A program made the position numbers and the translations under genes. The notes beneath the pieces are model-generated. The model made no database searches. It was given only the letters and a program-made list of their open reading frames with translations, and was not told the DNA's origin. This document shows, piece by piece, positions 6,475 to 42,185 of a DNA stretch of 42,185 nt. The stretch is from Desulfobacterales bacterium (GTDB lineage: Bacteria > Desulfobacterota > Desulfobacteria > Desulfobacterales > JAHEIW01): the NCBI GenBank assembly GCA_050122435.1, contig JASFIX010000001.1:1-42185 (forward strand), written 5' to 3'. Positions within the stretch are counted from its first letter, which is position 1; each line of letters opens with the position of its first letter.

Positions 6475-6502
6475 GCTTAAAATTATCTGGGCAGTGTATC
6501 GG

Positions 6503-8002: not shown

Positions 8003-8239
8003 GACAGAATCTCCTTGTTTGGGTGATTAAAAATCTAAAGATAGCAGAAAACATAAAGAAAATTCAATTATTAATCAAATTTGAGCTAGCTTTAAAAATG
8101 ATAAAAAGAGATTATTTTTTAAGATGAGAGATGACTTTTGATGACCTGGGCTCCTTAACAACGCTGTAATGCGTGCGCCATTTCAAGCGACTAAAACCCA
8201 AATTATGTTCATTTACCTGAAAACACCCAGGAGGATAAG

Positions 8240-8593: not shown

Positions 8594-8606
8594 AATTTTA
8601 ATCTGA

Positions 8607-9857: not shown

Positions 9858-9872
9858 AGAGCCTCTGCAGGT

Positions 9873-10844
9873 TTAGTCGACAAAATACCAGAACTTGGGA
9901 TCCGTTCCCAGATCCTCCTTCCACCTGAAAACCTTCTTGTGCTTGAGGACAAACCGGATTTCACTGTCAGGATCCAGAAGATTTCCGAACACCCGGGCGC
10001 CGGTGGGGCAGGCTTCAACACAGGCGGGCAGCCTGCCGGCTCTGCTCCGTTGCACACAGAAGGTACATTTTTCCATCTGACCTCGTCCGCGTATGCGGTT
10101 GCCCAGATAGTGCTGTTTTTTGGTCATTTCTTCTTTCGGCACCACCGGGTCATTCCAGTTAAAGCGGCGTCCATAATAAGGGCATGCGGCGATACAGTAA
10201 CGGCAGCCGATACACCAGTCGTAATCAACCACCACGATACCGTCCGGTTCCTGCCAGGTGGCCTTTGTTGGACAGGCCTTGACGCAGGGCGCGTTTTGAC
10301 AGTGGTTGCACTGCACCCCCATGTAGAAATGATCTTCAACCGGTACCTGGTGATAAAATTTGGAGTTGCCGACCTCCGGGGTCAGTTGACCGTGTTCCAT
10401 TTCAAAAATGCGGATATATTGCATGTTGGATTTGCGGTCGAGGTTGTTTTCCTTTGCACAGGCGGCTACACATTCCATGTAACCCTCACAGCGGGTGACG
10501 TTAAAGGCATAGCCGAACAAAACGCCTTCGATGGGAGGTGCGGAGCTCATCTGGATATTGACATTATTTCTGATTTTAGCCAGCTGCTCCAGGCGCCGGA
10601 CCGTCTCATCTTTTTCCTCCTGGGTCATGAGGCGGTAATTTTTCTTGAAGTATTCCTTCCAGCGCAGCGAAAGCTCTTCTTTTGAGCCCAGCATGCTGCC
10701 GCCGCATCCGGCGAGCATCGCCGCACCGCCGAAGGCAGCAACTCTGGCGGCGCCTTTCAAAAATTCCCGCCGGCCGCAGGATTTGGTCTGCTGGCCGCCC
10801 TCTTCATGTGGTTTCTGACAGATCATATTTTTTTGGGGATCCAT
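9873..10844 (-). CDS. Tat-exported 4x[4Fe-4S] ferredoxin-like subunit (NrfC/PsrB/HybA-like)
   Basis: Twin-arginine motif GRREFLKGAA. Four Cys clusters: CEGYMECVAAC, CNHCQNAPCVKACP, CIGCRYCIAACP and CTFCVQR...CVEACP. Confidence 0.85.
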   Translation of the reverse strand: MDPQKNMICQKPHEEGGQQTKSCGRREFLKGAARVAAFGGAAMLAGCGGSMLGSKEELSLRWKEYFKKNYRLMTQEEKDETVRRLEQLAKIRNNVNIQMSSAPPIEGVLFGYAFNVTRCEGYMECVAACAKENNLDRKSNMQYIRIFEMEHGQLTPEVGNSKFYHQVPVEDHFYMGVQCNHCQNAPCVKACPTKATWQEPDGIVVVDYDWCIGCRYCIAACPYYGRRFNWNDPVVPKEEMTKKQHYLGNRIRGRGQMEKCTFCVQRSRAGRLPACVEACPTGARVFGNLLDPDSEIRFVLKHKKVFRWKEDLGTDPKFWYFVD

Positions 10845-10853
10845 GGTGTTTCC

Positions 10854-11483
10854 CTATTTGCCTTTGCTTAAAGGAGGTGAGTATGTTGCCGGCCACCGCT
10901 TCTTAAAGCGCGGCGAATGAGGATCATGACAGCCGGTGCAGTTTTTAACCACCCGCTGACCGGCCCAGTTTGAGATGCGCTTGCCATGGGCACCACCCAC
11001 CCAGTCTTTTTTCTGCCGGAAGTGGCACTGGCCGCACATCTGGTAGCTGTGATCCATATCGATTTTCGTGCCCTGTTCGGTTATCAAAAAATCGCGTTCA
11101 TCTTTTTTATGGCAGGTATAACAGGACAGGGGTCGTGCCTCGCTGCCGTGATTCAGGACGATTTCACCGTGGGCGATTTCAGCGGCCCGCGAGACCCTGA
11201 CCGGCCTGTTATTGTGGCATTGACTGCATTTAAAGCGCTGCATCTTGTCCTTGCGGGTCTCGGTGCGGAACTGCCCCCCCTGGTATCTTTGCGTCACCAA
11301 AACGGAAGGTATCGGAAGCGTCAGGGCCGCATCGACCTGCTTTTCATCATCGAAGGGCGCCGTTGCATTTTTGTAGATTTGAACGACGCCGCCCTCTGTG
11401 GAATATGCCAGGCCTGCCGCAAAAGTCAGAAGCAACACCGTCAATATTCCCCAGAGGTAATTTTTAAATATTGGTGTCTTCAT
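10854..11483 (-). CDS. Periplasmic tetraheme c-type cytochrome
   Basis: Signal peptide followed by four CxxCH motifs (CSQCH, CYTCH, CGQCH, CTGCH). Confidence 0.85.
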   Translation of the reverse strand: MKTPIFKNYLWGILTVLLLTFAAGLAYSTEGGVVQIYKNATAPFDDEKQVDAALTLPIPSVLVTQRYQGGQFRTETRKDKMQRFKCSQCHNNRPVRVSRAAEIAHGEIVLNHGSEARPLSCYTCHKKDERDFLITEQGTKIDMDHSYQMCGQCHFRQKKDWVGGAHGKRISNWAGQRVVKNCTGCHDPHSPRFKKRWPATYSPPLSKGK

Positions 11484-11498
11484 ATCAACCCTGATGGC

Positions 11499-12179
11499 TT
11501 AGGATTTAGGTTTTCTCTGCCACTCCGGCGCATTGGTTACCGGTACGTGGCACTGCCGGCAATTTCCCCGAGACGGGTGTTCCACCCGAATGGTAGCTAT
11601 CGTTCCCGGTCCCACATGACAGGCAATACAGTTGGCTCGCATTTGAATTTCATGCGGAATCGGCAGTGGCGCCCCCGGCAAGGCGGCGCGTCCCAGGCGG
11701 GGTGGTGCCACACTCTGCCAGTCGGTTTCAACAAAGAGTTTGGCCTCGGTTACGGTAATATGACATTGTTGGCAGGCTTCCTGCTCGGGGTGCGGCGTAA
11801 CGGGCGTATTCTTTTTCAGCTCTTCCGTCCAGCCACCCCGGAGGTGACAGGCCAGACATTCGACTCGGGCCAGATCCGGCTCTTCGACTTTATGGGGAAT
11901 AAGCGGCGGTGACCCCGGATACTGCCTCAGGGAGTAGTATTCTTCGAGTGTGCGCCCGGTGGAAGTGCCTTCCAGGTAGTCTTTGGATACCTGGTCATAG
12001 TTTACAAAGATGGCTTTTCCGCTATTGTCAAAGTTCATGTCTTGGGATTCCGCAATGGTGGTTTCCGTTCCTTTCGGCTCGGATGAAAAAGCTGAAAGCA
12101 CAATCAGCGGCAATACCAAGATGCAGATTCCGGCGAATATCAGAAAAACCTTTCCCACTTTCTGGTCTGATTTTTCCAT
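11499..12179 (-). CDS. napB: Tandem-duplicated NapB-like tetraheme cytochrome with N-terminal hydrophobic anchor/signal
   Basis: There are two copies of the NapB pattern [P-G-x-P-x-x-I-P-H ... CxxCH ... CxQCH]. Copy 1 is YPGSPPLIPHKV..CLACH..CQQCH. Copy 2 is LPGAPLPIPHEI..CIACH..CRQCH. The start overlaps the napA stop (TAATG). Confidence 0.75.
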   Translation of the reverse strand: MEKSDQKVGKVFLIFAGICILVLPLIVLSAFSSEPKGTETTIAESQDMNFDNSGKAIFVNYDQVSKDYLEGTSTGRTLEEYYSLRQYPGSPPLIPHKVEEPDLARVECLACHLRGGWTEELKKNTPVTPHPEQEACQQCHITVTEAKLFVETDWQSVAPPRLGRAALPGAPLPIPHEIQMRANCIACHVGPGTIATIRVEHPSRGNCRQCHVPVTNAPEWQRKPKS

Positions 12180-20175: not shown

Positions 20176-20193
20176 TTTTGCCACATGGTGGCA

Positions 20194-20676: not shown

Positions 20677-21369
20677 TTACACCTGGAGCGAATTTATTTC
20701 AACGTGTTTTTCTGAATTCTCCTGGCCGGTTTCAAGAACCCTACAAACAACCCGGTAATTTTCATTTAAAAACGCTGTAGTTGCTTTTGCCAGATTCGGA
20801 TAAAACGGATTTTCTGCATTTTCGATGATACTGTTGGCAAATTCCGGCACCCAGGCCATCAGGTGATCTTCCAGGAAAGATTTCTGCCTCTGAATAAAAC
20901 CGATGGCCGTTTCGATGTCGGAGCTGGCGAACGCTTCGATTTCTTTAAAAATCAAATAGTACATAAATTCGAGTTCAGCGCTGATGTGGTCGGGCGCATC
21001 TTTAAATGTCTTGGCTGTATCCAGGCCTGCTTCCCTGTATCTGTTTTTTACGTCCTGGGTTGAGTTGCCCATCATTTTTCTTTCGCTCTCTAAATACACC
21101 GAACCGTAAGGTGCCGCCGACAGCGTATACGGGCCGACAAACAGTTTTGAAAAATCGATTTTTAAGGGCTCAAGATCAGCACCGGCTTCGAATTCTTTGC
21201 ACATATTCTGGATTAACGGGACCGCCGCTTCGCACACATTTCCCATGTTGAATTCCAGGGTTTTCAATTTCTCAGATAATCCCGGATTCGGCAAAAAAAA
21301 GCAGTCGCTCAATAATCGAAATGCCGTCATTCGATGCGATTCACGGCTCAACAGGTTTTTTGTTCTCAT
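20677..21369 (-). CDS. arrD: TorD/DmsD-family redox-enzyme maturation chaperone (ArrD-like)
   Basis: 230-aa ORF. The segments FSKLFVGP...APYGSVYLE and PDHISAELEFMYYL are typical of the TorD family. It lies downstream of the Mo-enzyme genes. Confidence 0.75.
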   Translation of the reverse strand: MRTKNLLSRESHRMTAFRLLSDCFFLPNPGLSEKLKTLEFNMGNVCEAAVPLIQNMCKEFEAGADLEPLKIDFSKLFVGPYTLSAAPYGSVYLESERKMMGNSTQDVKNRYREAGLDTAKTFKDAPDHISAELEFMYYLIFKEIEAFASSDIETAIGFIQRQKSFLEDHLMAWVPEFANSIIENAENPFYPNLAKATTAFLNENYRVVCRVLETGQENSEKHVEINSLQV

Positions 21370-21407
21370 AGTTTTCTCTTGGGTTGGTTAAATGTGGTTT
21401 AATTAAT

Positions 21408-21438
21408 GCGATGCCGGCCGCTTTCCAGCCGGCATCGC
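21408..21438 (-). other. GC-rich perfect hairpin between arrC and arrD
   Basis: gcgatgccggc (21408-18) pairs with gccggcatcgc (21428-38) around a 9-nt loop. No U-tract follows on the transcribed strand. Confidence 0.5.
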
Positions 21439-21450
21439 ACGTGTTGTGTT

Positions 21451-22566
21451 TTACTCCGGAACTTCAGACAGTTTCAGGTTTCGTTCTCCCAGGGTGTATA
21501 CGAACAACAGCGCAGCCAGTGCAGAAACAAAAACAAACACTTCCCAGATTGTGGGCCAGTAACCCACAAACAGGGGCTGTCCTTCGGCCTTGGGACCTGT
21601 GGGCATCACCAGACCGCTGAGTACCATTTCCAGGCGTCCGGCAAACATGCCGATCAAAAACAAAGCCGCAGCGGTAACTTTACCCCAGACGGCCTGTCGT
21701 GCAGAGGGCGTGGCAAGCAATAGAAGCGGGATGACCAATCCCGCCCACAAGGCAAGGTGGTACCACCCTGAGCTCAACATATGCCTGAATCCGGCAAATT
21801 CGACCGCTGTCGCCGACGCGCCGCCCACGATCGTTCGCCATAGGAAAAAAATCAGCGTCAAAACCATAACAACGCCAAACAGATTACTCAGGTCGTCATA
21901 AAGGTTTTTGTCCCCGTCGCTCAAGGGAATCTCGGCAAAATGATGGTAGGCCAGGCTGAATAACAACACGGCAGCCAGCGCGCTGCCAAATCCGGTCAGC
22001 GGAAAATACATGGCTAAAAAGTTTGCGTTGTACGCCGGCCTTGCATCCGGAAGCCCAAAGAGCCAGCCCAGTGCGGTGGAGGTGGCAATCGCAATACTGA
22101 ATGTGAATATGCCAAGCCCCTTGCTGACCTGGCCTTTATGCATTTTGCCAAATGATAAGAGCAGTACAATCAGGTAAAGCCCATAGAGCATACCCAGCCA
22201 CCATAGAGGTGAGGCCGGGTTTGGGGATATTATGTAATAGATAACATTCCATGGCGATCCGAGATGTAATAACAAACAGGTAAAAGCAGCCACCAATACG
22301 GCGATTTCTAAAAATGCGGTCCTTTTTTCAAGGGGCTGGTAGCGCTTGATATTAAAAACCACGGGAATGGATGAGACAAAGGCAAGTCCTGAGCTTGTCA
22401 GTGAGAAAAAAACATAGGCTGCGATGGGCATGGTCCAGACCAATATATCCGTTTTGGCATACAGGACAAAGCCGGTGCTGATTAACACTCGATACGCGGT
22501 GAGCAGACCGAGCAGAATCCCCAACACAAGTAATCCATACCACAATTGAACTTTAATTGCTTTCAT
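21451..22566 (-). CDS. arrC: NrfD-family membrane anchor (ArrC-like)
   Basis: 371-aa polytopic membrane ORF. Its start abuts the arrB stop. Confidence 0.75.
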   Translation of the reverse strand: MKAIKVQLWYGLLVLGILLGLLTAYRVLISTGFVLYAKTDILVWTMPIAAYVFFSLTSSGLAFVSSIPVVFNIKRYQPLEKRTAFLEIAVLVAAFTCLLLHLGSPWNVIYYIISPNPASPLWWLGMLYGLYLIVLLLSFGKMHKGQVSKGLGIFTFSIAIATSTALGWLFGLPDARPAYNANFLAMYFPLTGFGSALAAVLLFSLAYHHFAEIPLSDGDKNLYDDLSNLFGVVMVLTLIFFLWRTIVGGASATAVEFAGFRHMLSSGWYHLALWAGLVIPLLLLATPSARQAVWGKVTAAALFLIGMFAGRLEMVLSGLVMPTGPKAEGQPLFVGYWPTIWEVFVFVSALAALLFVYTLGERNLKLSEVPE

Positions 22567-23295
22567 CTATATCCCCCCTTTCGTTCTTTGATAGTGTGCG
22601 GGATTAAAACTGCGAATATAATAGACGTTCGGCTGAGTGCCGAGCCGCTCTTTGCGACGGTACGGTTTGTATTTTCCTAAAAGCCGGTTCACCTTGCTGT
22701 CCGGCTTTTCCAGATCTCCAAATACCCGGGCATCAGAAGGACAGGCCTCAACACAGTAAGGAATCTCACCCTCCTTGATTCTGTGATCGCAAAAGGTGCA
22801 CTTTTCAACCACGCCCTTGGGTCTGTTCTCCGGAAGTGTTTTCCCCCTGGATGGATTGCTGTAAGGCGTTCCGTTTCCGTTGTTGACTTTCCGGGCTATT
22901 TCCTTCGGCGAACTTGTGCCGCCCTCGATGACCGGCCGAGTATCCCTCCAGAATTTGTGGGGGGCCTGCCAGTTGAAATAGATTACCTCATAGGGGCAAT
23001 TGTACATGCAGTACCGGCAGCCGATGCATTTGTCGGGATCATGCATGGTGATGCCGTTATCCAGCTTGTGCATGGCCTTTGTCGGGCAACCCGTTACGCA
23101 CGGGGGATCTGAACAGTGGTTGCAAAGCGTCGGCAGATAGTGAAACCGCACATTTGGGAACGTGCCGGAAGTTTCGGTTATTTTGCTGGACCAGTAGATG
23201 CCATCCTGCACATTGTTCTCGTTTCGACAGGCAATGCTGCAGGCCCCGCACCCGACACATCGCTGTAAATCTATTACCATTGCATATTTAGGCAT
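22567..23295 (-). CDS. arrB: 4x[4Fe-4S] electron-transfer subunit (ArrB-like)
   Basis: MVIDLQRCVGCGACSIACR, CNHCSDPPCVTGCP, CIGCRYCMYNCP and CTFCDHR...CVEACP. Confidence 0.85.
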   Translation of the reverse strand: MPKYAMVIDLQRCVGCGACSIACRNENNVQDGIYWSSKITETSGTFPNVRFHYLPTLCNHCSDPPCVTGCPTKAMHKLDNGITMHDPDKCIGCRYCMYNCPYEVIYFNWQAPHKFWRDTRPVIEGGTSSPKEIARKVNNGNGTPYSNPSRGKTLPENRPKGVVEKCTFCDHRIKEGEIPYCVEACPSDARVFGDLEKPDSKVNRLLGKYKPYRRKERLGTQPNVYYIRSFNPAHYQRTKGGI

Positions 23296-23305
23296 TTTTC
23301 ACCTC

Positions 23306-25891
23306 CTAAACTTTTTCGATTTTAATGCGGGTGGTCGCATAGAATGCCGTGCTCCCACTCAAACGATCATACTGGGCCGGGATGAGGTCGTTGCTGCTGC
23401 CTCCCCGGGGAACTTTGCCGAAAACTTTGGACGCCACCCGTCCGTAGGCCCAGTGGCCCTGACCATAGCACTTGGCGATCGTACCGGGTCTGACGCCTTC
23501 CCATAAGCTTGCCGTACAGGTCAGGCTTCCGGTCGGAGACGTCAGCTTCACTTTATCGCCATTTTTGATGCCGAGTGGCTTGGCGTCTCTGGGGTTGATC
23601 TTGGCCACATCTTCCCAGGGCACATCACCGGGATCGAGATCCTTAAAATCATGATACCAGGTACAGTTGGCCGAGCGGCCTTCACGGTTAAGTCTGGATT
23701 TGTAATCCACATGGATGAATGGGAAGTCTTTTTCATCACCGGCGATAAACGGTTCTTCATAATGCGGCACAAAGGCAGTTTCACCACGCGCCAGGTAATT
23801 GCAAACTTCCAGAACATTGTCGACGCTGGTGTTATGCTTCTCCGCATGCTTTTCGAGGGCCACCTTCAGGGTTTCGCTGTAGAATTCAAACTTTTTGGTT
23901 TTGGTTTTCATGTTGCCCCAGCGCTTGCGATAGGGATAGGGCTTGGAATTCCAGACGCCGGCTTTGAGAAAATCCTCCCAGCCGCTGAATTTGTCACCCC
24001 CTTTGTATTTGGCCGGATCCCACAGGTTCTGAGTGGCATATTTAAGAGAATAAAGTGCAAATTCTTTTTCGTTGGTCGGGGCTTTGCCGGTCTCCGGATC
24101 CTTATAGGCCTTGAAGTGCTCGAGCAGATTGCTAAAACCTCTTTCCGCCAGCTTTTCGGCGATCAACCAGGGAATTTCGGTTTCATCGATCTTGGAATCG
24201 CCCACCGGCTTGATAATCGGCTGCATGAGGGTCACGTGCCGGTATCCGTTGCCCATGGCTTTGACATACCCCCACTTTTCAAACATATGATGGGTGTCGG
24301 GTAGCAGAATATCGGCGAACCAGGAATACTCGGACGCGTTGGTGGTGATGTGCACCAGAAAAGGAATCTTGGCCAGCGCCCGCTCCCAGCGTTCCGGTTG
24401 CGGGCAGGAGAAGGCAAAGTTGTTCATGTAACCGATCGCCACTTTGATTTCATTGGGATCCGCGTTCAGAATACCGTCGGCCGCATTGTTGGTGACCACC
24501 CCGCCGCCCGATTTACCTTTGTTCAGCGCGGGAAACTCCAGCCGGCCGCGATGATCGATTTTTTTATGCTTTTTGCCTGCCTTGGCGATTTCGTCCATCC
24601 AATCGTCGGGTTTCGGAAACTTGGAGGTGTATTCCTTGTTGCTCTTCTGTGTGCCGCCGACATTATCCACCCCCCCGACGATGCCGTTTAAAGCATGCAC
24701 CGCCATGGCAGCGTATCCGCCGCGCACCTGCATGCAGGGCCCGCCGCCCAGCCATGAAATGGCGTGGGGTGCCGCCTGGCCGTAACCGATCGCCACCCGT
24801 TTGATCTGGTCGACCGGCAGGTCGGTTATTTTGGCCGCCCACTCCGGTGTTTTGTCTTTCAGCTCCAGATTCCACCAGGTGACAATGCCGTTGGTGTGTA
24901 TTTCTTCAAACAATTCAGGATCGACATCCTGTCCGGCCACAAAGCGGTTTTCGCCATCGATAAAATCGCCGACGAAATCTTTGTACCAGAGCCCCTCGGT
25001 GAGCAGAACATGGGCGATGGCCACTGCCAGTGCACCGTCGGTTCCGGGTTTGAGCGGCATCCATTCATCGGCTTTGGCTGCGGTAGCGGATAGGCGCGGC
25101 TCGGCGATTGCAATCGTGGCTGAATCAATCGCATCTCCCCAAGCAGACGAGTAGTAGGACACCTGACGGTTGGCTGCCAGGGGATCGGCGCCCCATAATA
25201 TAATGTACCGGGCCCTTTTAACATCGTACTGCCGGTACCCCCAGTAGCCCTCCGTATAGTAAGGGCCGAATTTTTCGGCTTCGGCGCAGATGGCACTGTG
25301 GGAAATGTTGTTGGGCGAGCCGATGATTTTGGTCATGCGGTCATAGAGAACATCGCGCATGTACGAATAACGACCGCGCATGAGCATATACTTGTGGGTT
25401 TCGTTGTTGTTTCTGAGCTCCATGATCTTATCTGCAATTGTGCTCAGGGCTTCATCCCAGGAAATTGGCACAAATTTCGGATCTTCATTGCGCCCTTTTT
25501 GGGGATTGGTCCGTTTCATGGGGGTTTTGATCCGATCCGGGTCATAAACCTGCTGCAAGGCAAGATGGACGCGTGGACAACTCGCCTCTCCATTCACCTT
25601 AGAATTCGGATTTCCCCGGACTTTCACCGCCCTGCCATCGACGACGTAAACCTGTTTGGAACACCAGGACGTACATCCCTGACAGGTGGCCGCTTTCCAC
25701 TCGCCCGCTCCACCGCCGGTGGTCTCGCTGGCTTCCGCCAGGGTTTTCAGCGCCGGTTTGAAAGACGTACCGAGTACAACCGCACCACCGGTGGCGGCTG
25801 AGGCGCCTTTAATGAAAGATCTTCTTGAAATTTTGTAATCATTTAGAAAATCTTTCATCATGCCTTCTTTTTTGTTCTGTTTCATCTCCAT
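23306..25891 (-). CDS. arrA: Tat-exported Mo-bisPGD oxidoreductase catalytic subunit, arsenate respiratory reductase ArrA-like
   Basis: Tat motif SRRSFIKG. Fe-S motif C-x2-C-x3-C-x27-C (CQGCTSWC...CPR). RGRY motif at MLMRGRYSY. GLWYKDFVGDF and KTPEWAAKIT match the peptide targets of the classic arrA primers (GVWNKAFVGDF, TPEWAPEITG) at the expected spacing. The start may be ATG 25885 rather than 25891. Confidence 0.8.
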   Translation of the reverse strand: MEMKQNKKEGMMKDFLNDYKISRRSFIKGASAATGGAVVLGTSFKPALKTLAEASETTGGGAGEWKAATCQGCTSWCSKQVYVVDGRAVKVRGNPNSKVNGEASCPRVHLALQQVYDPDRIKTPMKRTNPQKGRNEDPKFVPISWDEALSTIADKIMELRNNNETHKYMLMRGRYSYMRDVLYDRMTKIIGSPNNISHSAICAEAEKFGPYYTEGYWGYRQYDVKRARYIILWGADPLAANRQVSYYSSAWGDAIDSATIAIAEPRLSATAAKADEWMPLKPGTDGALAVAIAHVLLTEGLWYKDFVGDFIDGENRFVAGQDVDPELFEEIHTNGIVTWWNLELKDKTPEWAAKITDLPVDQIKRVAIGYGQAAPHAISWLGGGPCMQVRGGYAAMAVHALNGIVGGVDNVGGTQKSNKEYTSKFPKPDDWMDEIAKAGKKHKKIDHRGRLEFPALNKGKSGGGVVTNNAADGILNADPNEIKVAIGYMNNFAFSCPQPERWERALAKIPFLVHITTNASEYSWFADILLPDTHHMFEKWGYVKAMGNGYRHVTLMQPIIKPVGDSKIDETEIPWLIAEKLAERGFSNLLEHFKAYKDPETGKAPTNEKEFALYSLKYATQNLWDPAKYKGGDKFSGWEDFLKAGVWNSKPYPYRKRWGNMKTKTKKFEFYSETLKVALEKHAEKHNTSVDNVLEVCNYLARGETAFVPHYEEPFIAGDEKDFPFIHVDYKSRLNREGRSANCTWYHDFKDLDPGDVPWEDVAKINPRDAKPLGIKNGDKVKLTSPTGSLTCTASLWEGVRPGTIAKCYGQGHWAYGRVASKVFGKVPRGGSSNDLIPAQYDRLSGSTAFYATTRIKIEKV

Positions 25892-25946: not shown

Positions 25947-26336
25947 TTAATGAGTTGATGTTCTACTGGAATTCACTTGATTTTCACCGATCGAGCGTAA
26001 CCAAAAAAACAGCTCGTCCGCATCGATCGGTCGATTGAGACAAGCATAGATATGATGGCTGATGGCATCCTTTAATTCAGGGTGTAAAGGCTGTTTGGAT
26101 AGACAAAAGAAATATACCCTCGGGAATTTTCGAGCGAGTTCCCTCACCGTTCGATTATCGACGGGGACGGTATCGATATCCCACAATATTGCCTGGCACC
26201 CAGTGTCTTTGATTTTTTCTTCTAAATTATGAGTTGAATATTGTGAGACGACTTTAAATTGACTCGCTTTCAGCAGTTCACACAGTTCCCGGCCCTGTTC
26301 TTTGTCGGCATCGATCACTAATATTGATTTCTTCAC
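25947..26336 (-). CDS. Stand-alone CheY-like receiver protein
   Basis: KKSILVIDAD...ILWDID...FFCLSKQ...CLNRP. I prefer GTG 26336, with AAGGAG 11 nt upstream, over the track's TTG at 26453. A sigma54 promoter lies inside that longer extension. Confidence 0.65.
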   Translation of the reverse strand: MKKSILVIDADKEQGRELCELLKASQFKVVSQYSTHNLEEKIKDTGCQAILWDIDTVPVDNRTVRELARKFPRVYFFCLSKQPLHPELKDAISHHIYACLNRPIDADELFFWLRSIGENQVNSSRTSTH

Positions 26337-26408
26337 TCGCTCACGGGCTCCTTGAACGAATTCGGCTGTAAATATAGGGGAAGAACAAAGATATTTATAC
26401 CACGATGT

Positions 26409-26425
26409 AGCAATGAATATGCCAG
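26409..26425 (-). promoter_or_regulatory. Sigma54 (-24/-12) promoter
   Basis: The minus strand reads cTGGCAtattcaTTGCt. GG and GC have canonical spacing, and it matches the TGGCAC-N5-TTGCW consensus well. It lies about 75 nt upstream of the receiver GTG. Confidence 0.65.
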
Positions 26426-26558
26426 AGCGAAAACGAAATGGGCAGGTGTTCAATTTGGTAACCTATGATTGGGGGACTTAGATTTAATCAACTGAAATTT
26501 ATATAAAAAATTTCTTGGAGCATAAAGGAAGATCAAAAATTAATTTTTATTGGAGGGT

Positions 26559-26703
26559 TGAATTTTAAACTGGAATTTCTTGAATCTGTACGAATTGCTG
26601 ACAGGAAAAACGGTGATATGTTGGATTCTCATTCATATTAAAAGGTTAGCTGTGTATGAATTCCGGACACAGAATTCGGCCGCGGACACATTCATGCCCA
26701 CAC
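26559..26703. promoter_or_regulatory. Cluster of ATGAAT/ATTCAT and GGACACA motifs, candidate enhancer (UAS) region
   Basis: ATTCAT at 26631-36 and 26690-95. ATGAAT at 26656-61, with another copy inside the sigma54 promoter at 26413-18. TGAAT at 26559-63 and 26581-85. GGACACA at 26665-71 and 26684-90. TGTGT-N11-ACACA at 26651-71. Confidence 0.35.
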
Positions 26704-26737
26704 TGTTTCGCAGAAAGCCCTATGAAGAGGACTAAAA

Positions 26738-27112
26738 TTATAATATTGACTGAAAAACCTCACAGGATCGACAGATCTTCATTTTCTCTTTCCAATCCTT
26801 TTGGCTTATTCCTTCACAGATGGTTCCATTGATAAACCAGCAGAGATCGCCGGAGCCAAACTCCCAGGCCGTACAATCGCTTTTCCGCTCAGGAGGACAA
26901 TTTTTCACAAGCCAGCACGGCTTTGGCTTTTTGCCTTTTTGTTCTAATCTGGAAAGCAGGAAAAAGATCTGACGCTCAACATGCACCGGCACCGTTCGCC
27001 AGCCCTGTTCGTAGCTGTGAATGGCTTTCAGTGAGGTTCCAAGCAATGCAGCCATCTGCTTTTGAGTTTTGTTCAGCCGATTTCGGTATTTTTTAAATTC
27101 CTGTTTGTTCAT
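26738..27112 (-). CDS. XRE-type HTH regulator fused to a C-terminal 7-Cys domain with two CW motifs
   Basis: N-terminus LNKTQKQMAALLGTSLKAIHSYEQG. C-terminus PCWLVKNC...DCTAWEFGSGDLCWFINGTICEG...KICRSCEVF. It lies 12 nt downstream of the sigma54 activator gene. Confidence 0.8.
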   Translation of the reverse strand: MNKQEFKKYRNRLNKTQKQMAALLGTSLKAIHSYEQGWRTVPVHVERQIFFLLSRLEQKGKKPKPCWLVKNCPPERKSDCTAWEFGSGDLCWFINGTICEGISQKDWKEKMKICRSCEVFQSIL

Positions 27113-27124: not shown

Positions 27125-29323
<2,199 letters not shown>

Positions 29324-29327
29324 TCGA

Positions 29328-30287
29328 TTATTCCTCCAGCGAAGCAATTTTTAGTTCTATATTACGGATACTGTCGTACCAGGCATCCTGCGTTGGAGTG
29401 AAACGATCGATCATTAATTCCTCCAGAATCTCTTGTCCCCTGGGGTCGCTGTGCATCGTAAAAAGTACCCGGCGAATACGATGTTTTAACTCGGATGCTA
29501 GAAAAGGTGATGCGACAATGGGCGGAATGCCGTAGGGTTCTGATTTGCGAATGATGCGGGTTTTGGAAGTGAAAATCGGATTTTTGCGGTGGTAATAGTC
29601 CCATATCAGGCTGTCGATTGCGGCCCCGTCCACCAGGGATTTGGCCACGGCCAGAATAGAGTTATCATGGCTGTAAGTGTAAATGGTTTTGTTAAAAAAT
29701 GTCTCGGGCCGCTCTCCCATCTGGCTGAGCCAATAAGTGGGCACCAGTTTGCCGGTATTGGAATCCGGATCGGTAAATGCAAAAACCTGCCCCCTGAGGT
29801 CATTCAGATTTCGAAAGCGGCTGGTCTTGTTGACAATCAAATAAGATTGGTAAAAATGGCTATTCTGAACCTCGGGAGTTGCCAGCAACTCAAATCCGTA
29901 CTTTTCCTTGCCGACGACATAAGGCCCCGAGCAGATAAAGGCCAAATCAATCTGACCCTTACCCAGTAATTCATTAATTTCAGCATAGGTTTTACGTTGA
30001 ATAAACTGAACCTCTCTACCAAGACGATGCCCGATATAATCTAAAAGCTGTCTATAATAAACAAACGTGTCTTTTGGAGAGATCATGGCAGCGACGGCCA
30101 TCCTGAAAGGAGGGTTTTCAAGCGTCTGTTTTCCCGGCTGCTCGATAACTACGGTTTTGGAAAAATCCACCACCCGGGCATCGGTTTCACCGCCGCAGGC
30201 ATACAGAAAAAACAGGCCGGCGGAAACGGCCAGGCATGATATCAAAAAGCTAATTCTAAATTTGAATTGATGCTCGATGGAATCCAT
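29328..30287 (-). CDS. PhnD-family (phosphonate-bd fold) periplasmic oxyanion-binding lipoprotein, ArrX/AioX-like, with no cognate ABC permease or ATPase
   Basis: Lipobox LFFLYAC. TYAEINELLGKGQIDLAF, FTDPDSNTG and SHDNSILAV...VDGAAIDS are typical of PhnD-like binding proteins. I place the start at ATG 30287. Confidence 0.8.
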   Translation of the reverse strand: MDSIEHQFKFRISFLISCLAVSAGLFFLYACGGETDARVVDFSKTVVIEQPGKQTLENPPFRMAVAAMISPKDTFVYYRQLLDYIGHRLGREVQFIQRKTYAEINELLGKGQIDLAFICSGPYVVGKEKYGFELLATPEVQNSHFYQSYLIVNKTSRFRNLNDLRGQVFAFTDPDSNTGKLVPTYWLSQMGERPETFFNKTIYTYSHDNSILAVAKSLVDGAAIDSLIWDYYHRKNPIFTSKTRIIRKSEPYGIPPIVASPFLASELKHRIRRVLFTMHSDPRGQEILEELMIDRFTPTQDAWYDSIRNIELKIASLEE

Positions 30288-30482
30288 AAGCGGCCTCACT
30301 GAAGAACGAACTTTTAGAATGAAGGGCAATCTGCGCAGGATCAAACTTATCAGAGGCGATTGTTGGATTATAGATAGATGCCACATAGTGGTAGGTAATG
30401 TCAATAAAAATATGGAAAATTAACAGGCTGGCTCATGGGACATTGAACAATTTGTGATTCAGGAACGATATGAGAGCATTCC

Positions 30483-31934
30483 TTATTTGCTCTGTCCGGA
30501 TTGAAGCATTTCTTTTGGAGGTTGGAAACCGGAGTAGGCCTGACTCAACACCTCAATCGGGTGAATGACTTTGTGAGGCGTGAGCTGGGTAAACTGCAGG
30601 CGGCAGCTCAGACAATCGGTTACGATATTTTCAGGGTTGAGCGCCTTTATTTTCTGCATCAACCTGCCCCCCAGGTGAATCGACGCCTGGTGAAATTCTT
30701 TTTTAAACCCCATAATGCCGGCCATACCACAGCAAAAAAGATTTCCGTTGATGGGCTCCAGGCTGATATCAGGGATTATTTTCAGCAGATCGAGATACGG
30801 TCTCCCGATGTTCTGCTCTCTTAAGTGGCAGGGAGGGTAATAGACCATTTGGTTCGATACCGTGCCAAATGTTGTCTTGAGCTCGCCTGATATTAGAAGA
30901 TTGGCTAAAAAATCTCCCAGATCATATGTATGTTCCGCCACCGATATGCGTTTGAGCGGGCTCAAAGTTGAAAAATAACCGTCGTCTTTGAGAATTTTTT
31001 CATACATGCCCTTTTTGACGAGATCGAACTCCCGGTCCCCGGGGTTATTGGCTGCCTTTCCACGCGGTATTTTGATATAGGCTTCATCCGCCCCCACGGA
31101 CGCCTGATATTCAGGGGAAAAATAAGCGCCTTCCTTTAACATATTTCTCAACATAAACCCGCATGTCGGGCAGGAGCAGACGATGTCATAGCCGCTATCC
31201 ACCGCCTCGGCCAGGTGCTCCAGATTGAAACGAACAAATTCCATTGTCAATTTTCGGTCGCCCTCCAGAAAGGTCGGCATACCGCAGCATTTTTGTTCCG
31301 GGTAGTAGACTTCGAATCCATTGTGTCGAAAGACATCAACCACGGCCTTTGGCACATCCGGGAAAAGATAATTTGCCGTGCAGCCCGCAAAATAGGCTAT
31401 TTTGCGGTTGGGGTGCTTCTTGGGTTGAGTATTCAAACGATGCTTTTTAGCCCATTGAGGAAAATTTTCTTGAGGGAATTCAGGAATCCGGCGCTCTGGG
31501 TGAATTCCGGTGGCCGATTTAAAGAGTTCGCCGCTTAGCTTATGCTTGAAAAGAAAGTTAGTCAGCTGTGGAAACATTCCGCACAATTTTCCAACGCGTT
31601 CGACATCTTCTAAAGTGCGTACGCCGAATTTTAAGCCGTCCCTTTCGATGAATTGCGTTTTGGCTTTGATGATGTCCGCTCGGATGTTCGGACACGGGCA
31701 CAGGGCGCAGAAGTTACACAGATCAACCAGCTTTCGAAGCTCATCAGAGCTAATTTTTTTACCCGTTTCGATCTCCTTGTCATACAATCGGTACAACTCC
31801 GGAAACATCAGGCAGTCTGAATCCATGAGGAATCGACAGACATCGCAATCCGAACAGGCGTCCACAACCGATCTTGCTGTATTTTCAGGTTCGATTTTTT
31901 CCATTTGCGTATTCGGTTTTCTCTCGGTTTTCAT
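30483..31934 (-). CDS. Fe-S / CCG-domain protein (HdrD/GlpC/GlcF-like)
   Basis: Two ferredoxin-type Cys motifs (CSDCDVCRFLMDSDC, CNFCALCPCP) and two CCG-type repeats (CCGMPT...CPTCG, CCGMAG...CLSCR). Confidence 0.8.
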   Translation of the reverse strand: MKTERKPNTQMEKIEPENTARSVVDACSDCDVCRFLMDSDCLMFPELYRLYDKEIETGKKISSDELRKLVDLCNFCALCPCPNIRADIIKAKTQFIERDGLKFGVRTLEDVERVGKLCGMFPQLTNFLFKHKLSGELFKSATGIHPERRIPEFPQENFPQWAKKHRLNTQPKKHPNRKIAYFAGCTANYLFPDVPKAVVDVFRHNGFEVYYPEQKCCGMPTFLEGDRKLTMEFVRFNLEHLAEAVDSGYDIVCSCPTCGFMLRNMLKEGAYFSPEYQASVGADEAYIKIPRGKAANNPGDREFDLVKKGMYEKILKDDGYFSTLSPLKRISVAEHTYDLGDFLANLLISGELKTTFGTVSNQMVYYPPCHLREQNIGRPYLDLLKIIPDISLEPINGNLFCCGMAGIMGFKKEFHQASIHLGGRLMQKIKALNPENIVTDCLSCRLQFTQLTPHKVIHPIEVLSQAYSGFQPPKEMLQSGQSK

Positions 31935-32701
31935 CTTCTGATGCTGCGCTGGGGATTTAATGTTAAATAAGATTTGCGGCTAAACTTATGGAGCACGGGA
32001 GTGCCCATACCGTGCCGGATGGCCTTCAGCAGTCTATCCTTATCGAGGGGAACCGTACCGGCGAGCATATGCACGGGAAGGTGATCAAAGGCTTTTGCAA
32101 CCATCGGCGTACTGGGGCCCAGCATCAAGGTTTTTACTTTCGCATGAACGTTTGCCAGTATTTCTTCGGTGCTGTTATTTAAAATCGAGGTTGATGTCAG
32201 AAACAGCACATCGGCCCAATTTTTCAGGTTTTTATAAAAATCCGCTTTCCGGCCTAGTCCGCGAGATTGATCCAGTATATCCAGAACCGCTTCTCTTTGC
32301 TCAAAACGCTTGACCAGGGGGCCAAAGTAGCCAACCATCGCGACTTTGGCTCCCTTTGTGATTTTAAACTGTTCGAACATGATTTCATTATCTTCATCTT
32401 CCGGCAACTGCAGCGCATCTTGATAATTCAGCGCATTGACCAGGGCCAGTGCCATGCTTCTTTCAATCGGTTGGTCGCTTTTTATTTTTTCCAATAGCGC
32501 AACTGCCGATTGGCCTTCATAATCTGCGGCTTCGTTTAACAGCATACAGGATTTTTTATCTTCAAAATAGGTATAGGCAATCCCCATTCCACCTTCAGAA
32601 GTAACCACAGCAGTATACCCCAGGCCCAGGCACAGGAGATCCACCCGTATTTTTTCGGCTTTATCCTTAAACAAATTGAACAGATTGTCATTTAGGATCA
32701 T
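31931..32701 (-). CDS. DUF4213/DUF364 (putative metal-chelation Rossmann-like) protein
   Basis: LGLGYTAVV...GMGIAYT, ALALVNALNY, VAMVGYFGPLV, ADVLFLTSTSILNNS and LGPSTP match the family as I recall it. Its stop overlaps the downstream start (ATGA). I place the start at ATG 32701. Confidence 0.7.
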   Translation of the reverse strand: MILNDNLFNLFKDKAEKIRVDLLCLGLGYTAVVTSEGGMGIAYTYFEDKKSCMLLNEAADYEGQSAVALLEKIKSDQPIERSMALALVNALNYQDALQLPEDEDNEIMFEQFKITKGAKVAMVGYFGPLVKRFEQREAVLDILDQSRGLGRKADFYKNLKNWADVLFLTSTSILNNSTEEILANVHAKVKTLMLGPSTPMVAKAFDHLPVHMLAGTVPLDKDRLLKAIRHGMGTPVLHKFSRKSYLTLNPQRSIRR

Positions 32702-32703
32702 TG

Positions 32704-33186
32704 TTAACCTCTCTTGCCCAGGTGTGGCACCCACTTGCCGGTGCTTTTCTGATAGGCCACATAGGTCTCACCAAATTTTACTTCCAGCAACTTTTCTTCG
32801 TAGCTGGCGATATAATTGTAAAACACAAAGATGACCACCAGCAGTCCAAGGCAGAACAAGGAGGCCGTGGAAACCGTAAAGCCAAAGTAAATTAGGATAC
32901 TGCCCAGATACAGTGGGTGTCGCACATATCGGAAAGCACCTGCGGATACCACCGTCGTAGGGCGTTGTTCACCGCTGACAACCACATGACCGGATTTGAA
33001 AAAATAAAAGCTGGCGGCCAAGGCCGCACCCAGGATAATCAATCGAATTATCAGCGGGATGCGATCCGCCAAAAATGTGGAACGCTGCAGGATAAATGAA
33101 TCCAGGATCCATATAATTATAAACAAACCGAACATGGCCAGCTGTCCGGCGTCTCCCAGGGGATGTTCACCGTTTTTTTCTTTCAC
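32704..33186 (-). CDS. ICMT/PEMT-family membrane methyltransferase-like protein
   Basis: 160-aa membrane ORF with RYVRHPLYLGSILIYFG. GTG start 3 nt after the DinB stop. Confidence 0.7.
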   Translation of the reverse strand: MKEKNGEHPLGDAGQLAMFGLFIIIWILDSFILQRSTFLADRIPLIIRLIILGAALAASFYFFKSGHVVVSGEQRPTTVVSAGAFRYVRHPLYLGSILIYFGFTVSTASLFCLGLLVVIFVFYNYIASYEEKLLEVKFGETYVAYQKSTGKWVPHLGKRG

Positions 33187-36105: not shown

Positions 36106-37914
36106 TCAATCCTCCACGATCTTGATGACGACCAGGGTCACATCGTCCTCGGGCTCCTTACCCTGCCGGAAGAGCCTTAACGCAGTCAAAATTTCATTCA
36201 TTATTTCATCGGCGCTTGCGGCGGCCTTTTGACGGATAATGTCTTTTATCGGTTCCTTGCCGAACGGATTACCGTTTTTGTCGAATGTCTCCCAGATTCC
36301 ATCTGTTCCCAGAAAAATGATTTGACCCGCGGTAAAATCGGTGTGTACGTTTTCTTCATACTGGTAGTTTTCATCCCAGCCCAGCGCCAGACCGGAACCG
36401 TAAAGTTCTTCAAACCGGTCGCTGGTTGGGTCATAAAGAAGTGCGGCATCATGACCGGCGCGTACCCATTTCAGCCGATGTTTTTGGGCGTCGACCATCA
36501 GATAAATGAGAGTGGCGAACCGGCCGGTATCATAGATATCCAACGTAAGGTCCCGGTTGACGTCTGTGATAATTTGAGCGAGTGTTCCCGGCTGGGCCGA
36601 GCGGCTGCGAATCAGCGCCCGGGCCGTGGTCATTAAAAGACCGGCAGCGATACCGTGACCGGAAACATCACCGACAAGAACATTGAGTTTGCCCTCGGAC
36701 GGTGGCGAAACATTGAGGAAATCATAAAAATCACCGCCCGTTTTGTTGCAATAGACACTTTTGGCGGCGATATCGAGACCGTTTATGGTCGGCACTTTTT
36801 TAGGAAGCAGGTTTTGCTGAACCTCTTCAGCAACTTCCAAGGCGCTGAGCATACGGTTGTTACCGATGGCCAGATCGATTAGATGGGTAACGGATCTAGC
36901 GGTATTGACAACGGTATTAATGACATCGGAATCGATGCTTTTGATGCCGTCTTGTTTGTTAAAGGCAATGATCGATACATCACCTTCAGCGTAATTGATG
37001 TAGTTGGTGATGGCAAAGCCTAAAAAGGCCTTAACGTTTTCATTAAACGAATGCTTGTTTTCAAACTCGGCCTGAGGCATGGATCGTGGTTTGGTGGCCG
37101 TTGCCACACAGCCATTAATATCGCATTCGGCTTTTCGGGATGCCCAGATCGGTGCCGAAGAATTTTCAGGGACCTGTATCAGTTTGGATTTTATCAGACC
37201 ATCGGGTTTGCCCTTAAATACATAACCGGAAAGGTTTCCTTCTTGATCTTCTCTGGTAATGAAAACCCCCTGATAGCCTTCCCTTAATATGAGCAAAGCC
37301 AGTCTATCGTATATATCATTGTTAACCGCAAGCTCATTTATGGCGTTAATAACTTCACGGCTGAATCGCCGAATTGACGACAAACTAACGTCCCTGGCTT
37401 TGCGCGATGATATTTCATCCAGCCAGACTAAAATATGATCGTCGGCACCGACCCTGGTTTTAACCTGATACCATTTATCGGGAATTTGCGAATACAATTC
37501 GAGGGGTTCCAGCGAGGAATCATCCGATGGACCCTCGGCACTGGCAAGGATGGTTTTTACTTCCTGGCCGTTAAATAATTCATCTATCTTTTGAACGTTA
37601 TGCTCTTTCAAGAAATGTTTTGTATTACCCTCGGAGGCAACAATCCGGCCCTGCCGGTCCATTACGAAGGCCGGATCTTTGCGTTCGGCCGGTAACTGAC
37701 AGAGAAGCCCAATATCTTTGGTTTTAAATTTTAGCCAGGCTTTAGCGAATCCCTGAACGAAGAGAGGCACGACATAGGGAACTGCCGAAAAAAAGATACT
37801 GTTGCCCTGAAAGACATTGATGCTGGCACCGATCAAAAAAGCGACCAGATAGGTGATCGGGCTGATTAATTCTTTGCCGAGAAACTTCAAGAAAACCGTT
37901 GTACTTATGAGCAT
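36106..37914 (-). CDS. Membrane-anchored sensor PP2C (SpoIIE-type) protein phosphatase
   Basis: GGDFYDF, VGDVSGHGIAAGLLM, GTDGIWE and DDVTLVVI. I place the start at ATG 37914 (GGGAGGA SD). The longer ORF would overlap the MOSC gene. Confidence 0.85.
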   Translation of the reverse strand: MLISTTVFLKFLGKELISPITYLVAFLIGASINVFQGNSIFFSAVPYVVPLFVQGFAKAWLKFKTKDIGLLCQLPAERKDPAFVMDRQGRIVASEGNTKHFLKEHNVQKIDELFNGQEVKTILASAEGPSDDSSLEPLELYSQIPDKWYQVKTRVGADDHILVWLDEISSRKARDVSLSSIRRFSREVINAINELAVNNDIYDRLALLILREGYQGVFITREDQEGNLSGYVFKGKPDGLIKSKLIQVPENSSAPIWASRKAECDINGCVATATKPRSMPQAEFENKHSFNENVKAFLGFAITNYINYAEGDVSIIAFNKQDGIKSIDSDVINTVVNTARSVTHLIDLAIGNNRMLSALEVAEEVQQNLLPKKVPTINGLDIAAKSVYCNKTGGDFYDFLNVSPPSEGKLNVLVGDVSGHGIAAGLLMTTARALIRSRSAQPGTLAQIITDVNRDLTLDIYDTGRFATLIYLMVDAQKHRLKWVRAGHDAALLYDPTSDRFEELYGSGLALGWDENYQYEENVHTDFTAGQIIFLGTDGIWETFDKNGNPFGKEPIKDIIRQKAAASADEIMNEILTALRLFRQGKEPEDDVTLVVIKIVED

Positions 37915-38038
37915 GCCAAGAATCCTCCCGGTAAAAATGAAATCCGTATGGAAAGGCGCGATTGGAAAATATCTATCAGGGGGATGTGCGGGGCAAAAAA
38001 CCGTATGTGCTCGTTTGCGTGTTTGATTTGGATGGGGA

Positions 38039-38482
38039 TTAATCCCTGCCGTTTTTCTCGATGCTGATCGAATCACCGCATCGAATTTTTCCCTCCTCCA
38101 GCACCCGTGCGAAGACACCTTCCCGCGGCATTATACAATCGCCGGCTTTGTAATAAATGGCACAGCGGTTGTGGCACTCTTTGCCGATCTGGGTAATTTC
38201 AACCAGGGCGTTTTGGCCCAACCGTATCCGGCTGCCCACCGGAATGTTTTTCCAGTCAACGCCGGTGGTGGCGATGTTTTCGGCAAAATCGCCGAAAGTT
38301 ACCTCAAAGCCTTTTTCACGGGCTTTATCTATTTCTTCGGAAGCCAGAAAACTGACCTGTCGATGCCAGTTGCCGGCATGGGCATCGCCCTCGAGACCAT
38401 GCTCCTTTTTTAAAAAGGCTTCATCAACCGTCATTTTCTGGGTTCCCTTTTTCTTGCTGGTTGCAATGGACACGATTTTCAT
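38039..38482 (-). CDS. MOSC-domain protein
   Basis: HGLEGDAHAG...RQVSFL, FGDFAENI and LVEITQIGKECH. Confidence 0.8.
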   Translation of the reverse strand: MKIVSIATSKKKGTQKMTVDEAFLKKEHGLEGDAHAGNWHRQVSFLASEEIDKAREKGFEVTFGDFAENIATTGVDWKNIPVGSRIRLGQNALVEITQIGKECHNRCAIYYKAGDCIMPREGVFARVLEEGKIRCGDSISIEKNGRD

Positions 38483-41938: not shown

Positions 41939-42185
41939 TTATCCGATCAGGGGCCCAAATACTTCACAGGTTTTGCATATCTTCATTTTTTCTTTCCAGT
42001 TTTTTTGAGCCGTACCGTCACAAATGGTTCCATTAATAAACCAGCAAAGCTCACCCGCCCCGAACTCCCAGGCCGGGCATTGGCTTTTTTGTTCCGGGCT
42101 GCATTTTTTAACCTGCCAGCATGCTTTCAATTTTCCTTTTTGGGTATTTTGCTTAACGGCTAAAAAATACATCTGGCGTTCAACC
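41939..42185 (-). CDS. Second XRE-HTH protein with the two-CW Cys-rich domain; N-terminus cut by the window edge
   Basis: The frame stays open to the window end, and VERQ upstream of the track's Met aligns with HVERQ of the 26738-27112 protein. The C-terminal 60 aa are 41/60 identical to that paralog, with all 7 Cys conserved. Confidence 0.75.
   Translation of the reverse strand, partial: VERQMYFLAVKQNTQKGKLKACWQVKKCSPEQKSQCPAWEFGAGELCWFINGTICDGTAQKNWKEKMKICKTCEVFGPLIG

Follow-up and report, generated by a model that had tools for sequence, protein, structure and literature searches.

The window, by which we mean the whole 42,185-nucleotide stretch of Desulfobacterales DNA analyzed here, contains on its minus strand a gene (positions 26738–27112) for a protein of 124 amino acids (aa) that joins an XRE-type helix-turn-helix (HTH) to a Cys-rich domain with two Cys-Trp (CW) dipeptides. 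This protein, referred to below as the regulator, is encoded amid genes of the type used in arsenate respiration (arr), and all results reported on it are in silico, from sequences and models. Its open reading frame (ORF) begins 12 nt past the stop codon of a HAMP/sigma-54 activator ORF of 740 aa (27125–29347), which forms a pair with a PhnD-like (ArrX-like) binding lipoprotein gene (together 27125–30287, minus strand; named by hidden Markov model (HMM), with a lipoprotein-type start near 30287 read from the translation). The PhnD-like, activator and regulator genes are probably co-transcribed across the 12-nt gap. Downstream lies a putative target operon of arrA-like, arrB-like, NrfD-type and TorD-type genes (20677–25891, minus strand; by HMM), followed by molybdenum cofactor (Moco) genes of the order FmdE-MoCF-MoaA. 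The placement of the gene 12 nt after the activator and upstream of the arr genes, proposed in an earlier note, thus agrees with the ORF coordinates and the HMM-named neighbours. The PhnD-like/sigma-54 pair resembles the ArrX/AioX/ArxX systems, and AioXSR, ArxXSR and ArrXSR are oxyanion-sensing systems (PMC5908839).

The ArrA-like product (23306–25891; 1305 bits) and the ArrB-like product (22567–23295; 331 bits) have the arr models as their best matches but fall under the NCBIfam equivalog cut-offs of 1600 and 450, respectively. No relative's ArrA or ArrB reaches these cut-offs either, which suggests a divergent Arr clade with a putative substrate. Between the regulator and arrA lies a small REC-like gene, 'orf168', that is kept ahead of arrA in all arr-type loci seen. 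Its listed TTG start at 26453 (168 aa, 25947–26453) is probably wrong; a GTG at 26336, preceded by AAGGAG, is the likely start and gives a version of 129 aa (25947–26336, minus strand), matching a homolog in the related genome G018 that begins MKKSILVID. With a Response_reg score of 21.2 bits, below the cut-off, the product appears to be a weak, possibly degenerate receiver domain. A second XRE/two-CW paralog, its N-terminus cut by the contig end, lies at 41939–42184 (minus strand), directly upstream of metY-metX-metW, and the two paralogs differ at no Cys position.

The HTH occupies residues 7–41 (26990–27094, minus strand) and scores 26.0 bits with Pfam HTH_3 (PF01381; gathering cut-off 23), and the Cys-rich domain occupies residues 65–123 (26744–26920, minus strand) and scores 48.3 bits with the NCBIfam model NF045718, two_CW_domain (cut-off 35; 49.2 bits in a six-frame search of the genome). 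With an ATG start, the length of 124 aa and both models above their cut-offs, the HTH/seven-Cys fusion predicted in the earlier note is a real family combination, and its guess of the two-CW label was right. The seven Cys are C66, C72, C80, C91, C99, C114 and C117, with CW dipeptides at C66-W67 and C91-W92, in the pattern CW-x4-C-x7-C-x10-CW-x6-C-x14-C-x2-C; the motif string written earlier had this Cys set and both CW motifs and slightly miscounted the spacings. All seven Cys and both CW dipeptides are invariant in 20 of 20 close homologs, as had been claimed of the Cys, together with W67, W83, W92 and W107. They are at least 90% conserved among 50 diverse sequences and at least 80% conserved over the XRE, chemoreceptor and kinase architectures. 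The recognition helix SLKAIHSYEQGWR is mostly invariant in the 20 close homologs and nearly invariant family-wide, and at 30–60% identity the Cys, the CW tryptophans and a SYEQGWR core are still kept.

The AlphaFold model of the full-length regulator has a predicted local distance difference test score (pLDDT) of 95.3 and a predicted template-modelling score (pTM) of 0.86, and its N-terminal half, with helices at residues 3–12, 17–24, 28–36 and 43–57, conforms to the five-helix Cro/CI-type fold. Foldseek matched the full model in the HTH half only, to C.Kpn2I, HipB, SinR and the C-terminal domain of MqsA; the probability was 1.0 for C.Kpn2I, C.BclI, HigA2 and Aca1 over 49–58 columns, with root mean square deviations of 1.1–1.9. 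As judged from profile and model, the HTH is of the common XRE/Cro type.

The two-CW domain modeled alone is equally confident (pLDDT 95.0) and has no evident structural neighbour. Foldseek with the domain alone found no relative (best E 5.8), VIA-align found no chain at Z of at least 2 among 48,161, a Protein Data Bank (PDB) profile search matched HTH proteins only, and the ESM Atlas gave no usable match. These structural searches with the model give no solved relative, and for a chain of 65 residues a missing match does not prove a new fold. A search of the full library with the domain alone yielded 299 clusters at 50% identity, in which it occurs in XRE fusions, in stand-alone forms and in long proteins. 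The ten long proteins sampled were all methyl-accepting chemotaxis proteins, in each of which the domain forms the very N- or C-terminal end. The source genome holds three two-CW genes: the regulator, its met-side paralog and a two-CW/cyclic nucleotide (cNMP)-binding/Ser-Thr kinase protein, which is the top NF045718 scorer (104.5 bits, against about 48–57 bits for the XRE fusions). Every architecture compared preserves the seven Cys and two Trp of the regulator. Because it also caps chemoreceptors and the cNMP/Ser-Thr kinase protein, the two-CW domain looks like a sensor module.

A word-indexed search for relatives of the regulator returned proteins of similar length in 2,616 clusters (90% identity); the first 120 are 66–90% identical to the regulator and come mainly from Desulfobacterales metagenome-assembled genomes (MAGs). 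A scan of a genome collection gave 577 relatives, of which 80 loci were kept for neighbourhood counts. A MetY homolog lies directly downstream on the same strand in 31 of the 80 loci and a MetX homolog is present in 30, usually with MetW next. Other recurrent neighbours encode a CysE-like hexapeptide transferase, a PALP (CysK-like) enzyme, MnmA, a PP-loop ATPase, a MOSC protein and a GAF protein, and a convergent gene with M1-peptidase, ChaN and PDZ domains occurs at 11 loci.

Many of the family genes carry a 15-bp palindrome, TACCACAWTGTGGTA, about 60 bp upstream, of the form T-ACCACA-W-TGTGGT-A (consensus TACCACATTGTGGTA). When k-mers were counted in the 250 bp preceding each family gene, TACCACA came up at 49 of 80 loci, against a maximum of 18 after shuffling, and the count also yielded the 10-mers CACAATGTGG and CACATTGTGG that define the palindrome. 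With up to two mismatches in the 13-bp core, it is present within 300 bp upstream at 45 of 79 loci, and its centre clusters tightly between −56 and −69 relative to the start codon regardless of the neighbouring genes. Such a fixed position is, in sequence terms, a hallmark of autoregulation. Scanning 880 kb of family loci with a symmetrised weight matrix, built from sites of other genomes, gave 81 sites that score 17 bits or more. In the source genome, 12 sites reach 17 bits and 9 reach 19 bits, compared with about 1.7 and 0.2, respectively, expected from Markov-1 simulated genomes. The 15-mer at up to one mismatch occurs 4 times in the source genome and 2–10 times in each of ten tested relatives with a regulator gene, and has no site in any of five same-order genomes (92–98% complete) without a two-CW gene. 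The reversed pattern gives 0–1 sites in nine of the ten gene-bearing relatives; the exception is G039, with 5 against 6 real sites. On this good comparative evidence we infer that the palindrome is the candidate operator of the XRE/two-CW family.

In every footprinted case where a gap of its own precedes the regulator gene, namely at L005 and L018 and in the genomes G004, G019, G005 and G012, that gap carries a site of 16.5–24.2 bits. The window is an exception, as this gap measures only 12 nt, and the regulator is therefore probably transcribed from the operator-bearing PhnD promoter. At the met-linked loci the gap between the regulator and metY contains no conserved motif beyond the ribosome-binding site, so metY is probably co-transcribed from the autoregulated promoter. 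An Rfam scan of the window detected no riboswitch or other RNA family; no S-adenosylmethionine (SAM) riboswitch therefore explains the control of metY there.

Three operator-like palindromes are located at the arr cluster of the window. The first, TGCCACATAGTGGTA (30379–30393; 21.1 bits; no strand assigned), lies in the gap upstream of the PhnD-like/activator/regulator operon. The second (26398–26412, minus strand; 17.3 bits; TGCTACATCGTGGTA in gene sense, TACCACGATGTAGCA on the plus strand) lies between the regulator and REC-like genes, and the third, TGCCACATGGTGGCA (20179–20193; 19.0 bits; no strand assigned), is at the 5' end of the FmdE-MoCF-MoaA genes. All three rank among the 12 best sites of the genome, lie in non-coding gaps and fall within about 10 kb of one another. 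By simple arithmetic (12 sites, 4.38 Mb) the chance of three sites within about 10 kb is roughly 3e-6, an estimate that is not circular because the matrix was trained on sites of other genomes. By phylogenetic footprinting, the site ahead of the REC-like gene is also found at L004, L014, L065, L084 and L088 and in G011 and G022, and the site upstream of the PhnD-like gene in G011 (21.2 bits), at L018 (18.2 bits) and in G019 (12.7 bits).

Ahead of the REC-like gene and arrA, a sigma-54 promoter-like element, TGGCAT-N5-TTGCT (26409–26424, minus strand; spacer ATTCA, one mismatch), is the best such match in the window. The operator at 26398–26412 begins inside the −12 element and covers the positions from −12 to about +1 of this promoter. 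A consensus sigma-54 element is present in 8 of 9 arr-type loci, and the fusion TGGCAY-N5-TTGCTAC-N3-GTRGYA occurs at L004, L014, L065, L088 and, with one change, L018. Promoter and palindrome are fused at six loci, and the palindrome arms stay constant where the spacer and flanks vary. A shift of the palindrome by 11 nt in the downstream direction, seen in G011 and G005, shows it to be an element separate from the −12 box. A second regulatory input at the arr promoter is thus supported by comparative sequence evidence, and the regulator appears wired into arr control, as the earlier note had supposed, through operator-like sites at three arr/Moco promoters of which one overlies the sigma-54 promoter. 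Repeated TGTGTCCG units and a TGTGT...ACACA inverted repeat are also present at 26640–26705 (minus strand), about 230–290 bp upstream of the sigma-54 promoter; both are candidate enhancer sites for the sigma-54 activator.

Elsewhere in the source genome, with target genes named by Pfam, strong sites precede the gene for hybrid-cluster protein (hcp), a second gene of the Prismane/CO-dehydrogenase family, an operon with a rubrerythrin-like gene, a gene for a GAF-SpoIIE phosphatase, a Usp fragment beside a PilZ gene, and a divergent receiver-PAS/binding-protein pair. In relatives, sites precede genes for PilZ, RseC-like, CstA and Cys/Met pyridoxal phosphate (PLP)-enzyme proteins, and the family loci have extra sites ahead of CysE-like, MetY and CysK-like genes. 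The common threads are sulfur assimilation, iron-sulfur (Fe-S) or metal enzymes, and stress and signalling. Taken with the chemoreceptor fusions, these threads point to general redox, sulfur or Fe-S status, perceived through a putative Cys-ligated centre, as the signal.

The reading that we favour, with moderate confidence, is that the regulator is an autoregulated, metal- or Fe-S-based regulator of redox or sulfur status that gates the arsenate-induced transcription of arr; in it, the cofactor, the signal, direct binding to DNA and the choice of repression over activation are all inferred. The protein would be a one-component transcription factor whose XRE HTH, presumably as a dimer, recognises T-ACCACA-W-TGTGGT-A. 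The two-CW domain would be the signal input, with the seven Cys most likely holding an Fe-S cluster or a Zn/thiolate site, and the state of this Cys-ligated centre would alter DNA binding. The regulator would control its own gene from an operator whose centre lies some 60 bp ahead of the start codon and would usually act on sulfur amino-acid genes (metY-metX-metW, cysE-like, cysK-like); further putative targets here are hcp, the CO-dehydrogenase-family gene, the rubrerythrin-like operon and signalling genes. In this genus it may have been recruited into arsenate respiration, with operators at the PhnD-like/sigma-54 activator operon (which carries the regulator gene here), at the Moco genes, and at the −12 box ahead of the REC-like gene and arrA. 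A bound protein would span −12 to about +1 or extend past it and should obstruct sigma-54 RNA polymerase, and for this reason repression is expected to gate the arsenate-dependent activation: arr would be transcribed only if the PhnD-like/sigma-54 pair senses arsenate and the two-CW signal releases the repressor. The redox-type co-sensor role suggested earlier for the Cys domain is still plausible in this form; an arsenite-specific role is not supported.

Several observations weigh against this reading. The sites at the arr promoters score modestly (13–17 bits), and their left arm is partly explained by the sigma-54 −12 consensus TTGCT. The site at the Moco genes was not found at the equivalent position in G022. 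Operator targets vary considerably between genomes, so that the regulon has a loose theme: at the best sites of five relatives, recurrence is confined to the arr locus, the regulator gene itself, PilZ and RseC, and the hcp, rubrerythrin-like and CO-dehydrogenase-family targets mostly do not reappear. The odd number of Cys is not accompanied by a conserved non-Cys ligand. Finally, the source genome is a fragmented MAG, 78.7% complete, in 665 contigs and 4.38 Mb.

An unlikely alternative is that the Cys-rich domain is a structural zinc module only, serving folding or dimerisation, and the regulator a simple autoregulated repressor that sets basal levels and responds to no signal. Small Cys-rich domains on XRE HTHs can be structural, as is the Zn domain of MqsA, and the HTH of the regulator matches MqsA-type models weakly. 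The same domain, however, ends chemoreceptors and the cNMP/kinase protein, where a scaffold for DNA binding makes no sense; a plain zinc ribbon would not usually have two invariant Trp beside Cys, or seven Cys in place of eight, and neither Foldseek nor VIA-align returned a zinc-ribbon match.

To a similarly low degree we credit the possibility that the protein is a specific regulator of sulfur amino-acid synthesis, sensing sulfide, persulfide, homocysteine or SAM status, and that the arr and redox sites are secondary or fortuitous. The dominance of the metY-metX-metW context, the nearby cysE-like, cysK-like, MnmA and MOSC genes, the extra operators before CysE-like, MetY and CysK-like genes, the nifS-nifU genes that adjoin the copy in G022 and the missing SAM riboswitch ahead of metY in the window all fit such a role. 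It accounts poorly for the strong sites before hcp, CO-dehydrogenase-family, rubrerythrin-like and signalling genes, and for the three sites that cluster at the arr region, two of them conserved in position; a domain borne by chemoreceptors also fits an environmental or redox cue better.

We consider it improbable that the palindrome belongs to a different transcription factor, the XRE/two-CW gene being merely nearby and the link to the arr promoter a coincidence. The weakness of the arr-promoter sites, and the part of their match that is the sigma-54 −12 box, would be in line with this, but the motif tracks the regulator gene at a fixed distance whatever the neighbours, is found in all ten gene-bearing relatives and in none of the five genomes without the gene, and pairs as a near-invariant operator with a near-invariant recognition helix.

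Still less credible is a dedicated sensor of arsenite as the reaction product, in which As(III) would bind at least three of the seven thiols and alter binding at the arr region as product feedback. What speaks for it is the gene's position inside the arr regulatory cassette, the operator-like sites at the arr cluster promoters, and an odd number of conserved Cys that leaves room for a three-thiol site. The neighbourhood statistics, one of the refuting checks that the earlier note set, show no general link to arsenic: 3–5 of the 80 loci are arr-linked versus the 31 with metY/metX. The order sigma-54 activator, regulator, REC-like gene, ArrA is repeated only at L004, L014 and L018; at L005 and L065 the layout varies, with CysE-like or MetY-like genes coming after the regulator. 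In G022 the regulator gene is 7.8 kb from arrA on the opposite strand, and in G003 it lies upstream of the PhnD-like gene. G011 has the PhnD-like, sigma-54 activator, REC-like, ArrA and ArrB genes at 61–92% identity, with the operators, and without a regulator gene between them. Conversely, G012 (97% complete, without ArrA) has an orthologous copy directly after a DUF364 gene and lacks the PhnD-like, sigma-54 and arr genes. Because G011 has arr without the regulator and G012 the regulator without arr, the arr linkage is, on gene content, local and dispensable in both directions, which argues against a dedicated arsenic function.

The family tree points the same way. It is a quick maximum-likelihood tree of 124 columns, poorly resolved, and can show only that a single arr-linked clade is unsupported, not prove multiple origins of the linkage; placing the arr linkage on it takes five label changes, which is no improvement on shuffled labels. 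The met-side paralog of the window groups among met-linked copies with an SH-like approximate likelihood ratio test (SH-aLRT) support of 99, and the G012 copy (L006) groups with the arr-side copy of the window. The Cys, moreover, are identical in the met-linked paralog and in the chemoreceptor and kinase versions. Together, the neighbourhoods, G011 and G012, the tree and the identical Cys in all architectures do not bear out the arsenite-sensor proposal of the earlier note; As(III) is a possible signal without specific support. Context and HMM scores also led us to discard the idea of a toxin-antitoxin component or a phage repressor.

Among known proteins, those of NF045718 share with the regulator the HMM match, the two CW dipeptides and the Cys set, although NF045718 is only a catalogued domain. 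The restriction-modification controller C.Kpn2I, SinR and HipB have the HTH fold in common with it (Foldseek probability 1.0 over about 50–58 residues), and the C.Kpn2I-type XRE autoregulators, like the regulator family, have a palindromic operator just upstream of their own gene. Unlike the family, however, C.Kpn2I, SinR and HipB have no Cys-rich sensor domain. The family genes, highly conserved, are chromosomal and go with metabolic operons rather than with restriction-modification, phage or toxin-antitoxin systems. MqsA, a Zn-binding Cys4 domain with an XRE HTH, likewise has a small Cys-metal domain on an XRE HTH and a size of about 130 aa, but in the reverse domain order. Membership of the MqsA family was rejected: PF15731 scores 16.6 against a cut-off of 30 and TIGR03830 21.9 against 61.8, and the gene has metabolic and regulatory neighbours with no toxin gene adjacent.

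A Cys-ligated centre controls DNA binding in NsrR and IscR (Rrf2 family), FNR, the WhiB-like proteins and SoxR. The working principle proposed for the regulator, with its putative cofactor, would be alike, without a relationship in sequence or fold; the regulon themes of Fe-S and thiol regulators overlap with those described above (hcp, Fe-S and sulfur metabolism, respiratory reductases). Searches of NCBIfam, Pfam and structures gave no HMM or fold match of the regulator to Rrf2, FNR or Wbl proteins. The ArsR/SmtB family was rejected as well, as no ArsR family in NCBIfam or Pfam matches the regulator and its fold is of the XRE type, not winged-helix. Nor does it compare with dedicated As(III) sensors, given the inconsistent association with arsenic genes noted for the 80 loci and, in a count of both across 41 related genomes, the presence of the domain in 33 and of ArrA in 15. 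What the regulator does share with ArsR/SmtB and ArrX-type systems is the setting in an arsenic-respiration cluster, here beside an ArrX-type protein and a sigma-54 activator; relative to ArrXSR-type systems, it would act alongside the ArrX-like sensor and not as part of it. Literature searches on two-CW proteins, on XRE and Fe-S regulators, and on arr with sigma-54 returned nothing relevant.

What is new, on the comparative evidence, is a candidate operator for a widespread, uncharacterised family of one-component regulators. An anonymous HTH protein thereby becomes a testable system with an operator, a predicted autoregulatory loop, a candidate regulon that spans Cys/Met synthesis, hcp, rubrerythrin-like genes and arr/Moco, and a promoter architecture in which an operator over the sigma-54 −12 element predicts two-signal control of arr. 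The assignment of the two-CW domain as an arsenite sensor, tempting as it is, is corrected here as unsupported. With its seven Cys, a confident fold and no solved relative, the domain is a good target for structural and spectroscopic study. To our knowledge, the regulation of arsenate respiration is largely unknown outside a few Proteobacteria and Firmicutes, and the same goes for global gene control in marine Desulfobacterales, which are abundant and for the most part uncultured. A wider reading, which we advance only tentatively, is that the two-CW domain is an unrecognised metal- or Fe-S-thiolate sensor fold and that its XRE fusion is a widespread global regulator in Desulfobacterales and relatives, through which sulfur assimilation, stress enzymes and respiratory operons would follow cellular redox, sulfur or Fe-S status. 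Part of this would be an unusual kind of control in which a repressor operator, set within the −12 region of a sigma-54 promoter, forms an AND-gate with an arsenate-sensing enhancer-binding protein.

Some further observations concern the surroundings of the family genes. In two genomes of the same genus, 1.5–1.7 kb of extra DNA lies between the regulator and the REC-like gene (G004, L087, 4944–6629; G005, L093, 4162–5647), and the REC-like gene of G004 matches in part only. At L018, from Olavius-associated Delta 1 (4558–11600), a PhnD-like/sigma-54 activator/regulator/REC-like cassette is followed by two other genes and then a molybdopterin oxidoreductase that is only distantly similar to the ArrA of the window; the cassette may serve different reductases. 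At L109 (G022:C1:3956689-3959703) the order is a nifS-like gene, a nifU-like gene (NifU_N), a 22.9-bit operator, the XRE/two-CW gene and a GAF protein gene, a gene order that links this family member to Fe-S assembly genes. Upstream of the arr locus in the window, a DUF364/DUF4213 gene (31931–32734, minus strand), described by Pfam as 'putative heavy-metal chelation', is a conserved neighbour. SpoIIE-type phosphatases recur near family genes and operators; one is located in the met-side run of the window (36106–38118, minus strand), and a GAF-SpoIIE gene (G000:C10:16640-18106) has a 19.2-bit operator site 167 bp upstream.

The two-CW/cNMP/Ser-Thr kinase gene is found at L001 (G000:C347; 384–842, minus strand, and 1486–2904, plus strand), where it is divergent from an RseC/MucC-like gene that is followed by a gene for a Tat-signal protein; the RseC/MucC-like label is based on the look of the sequence and on the Pfam match of a homolog in G007. 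A weak operator-like site of 14.4 bits sits between the kinase gene and the RseC-like gene, and in G007 (L115) an operator site with one mismatch lies ahead of the RseC-like gene.

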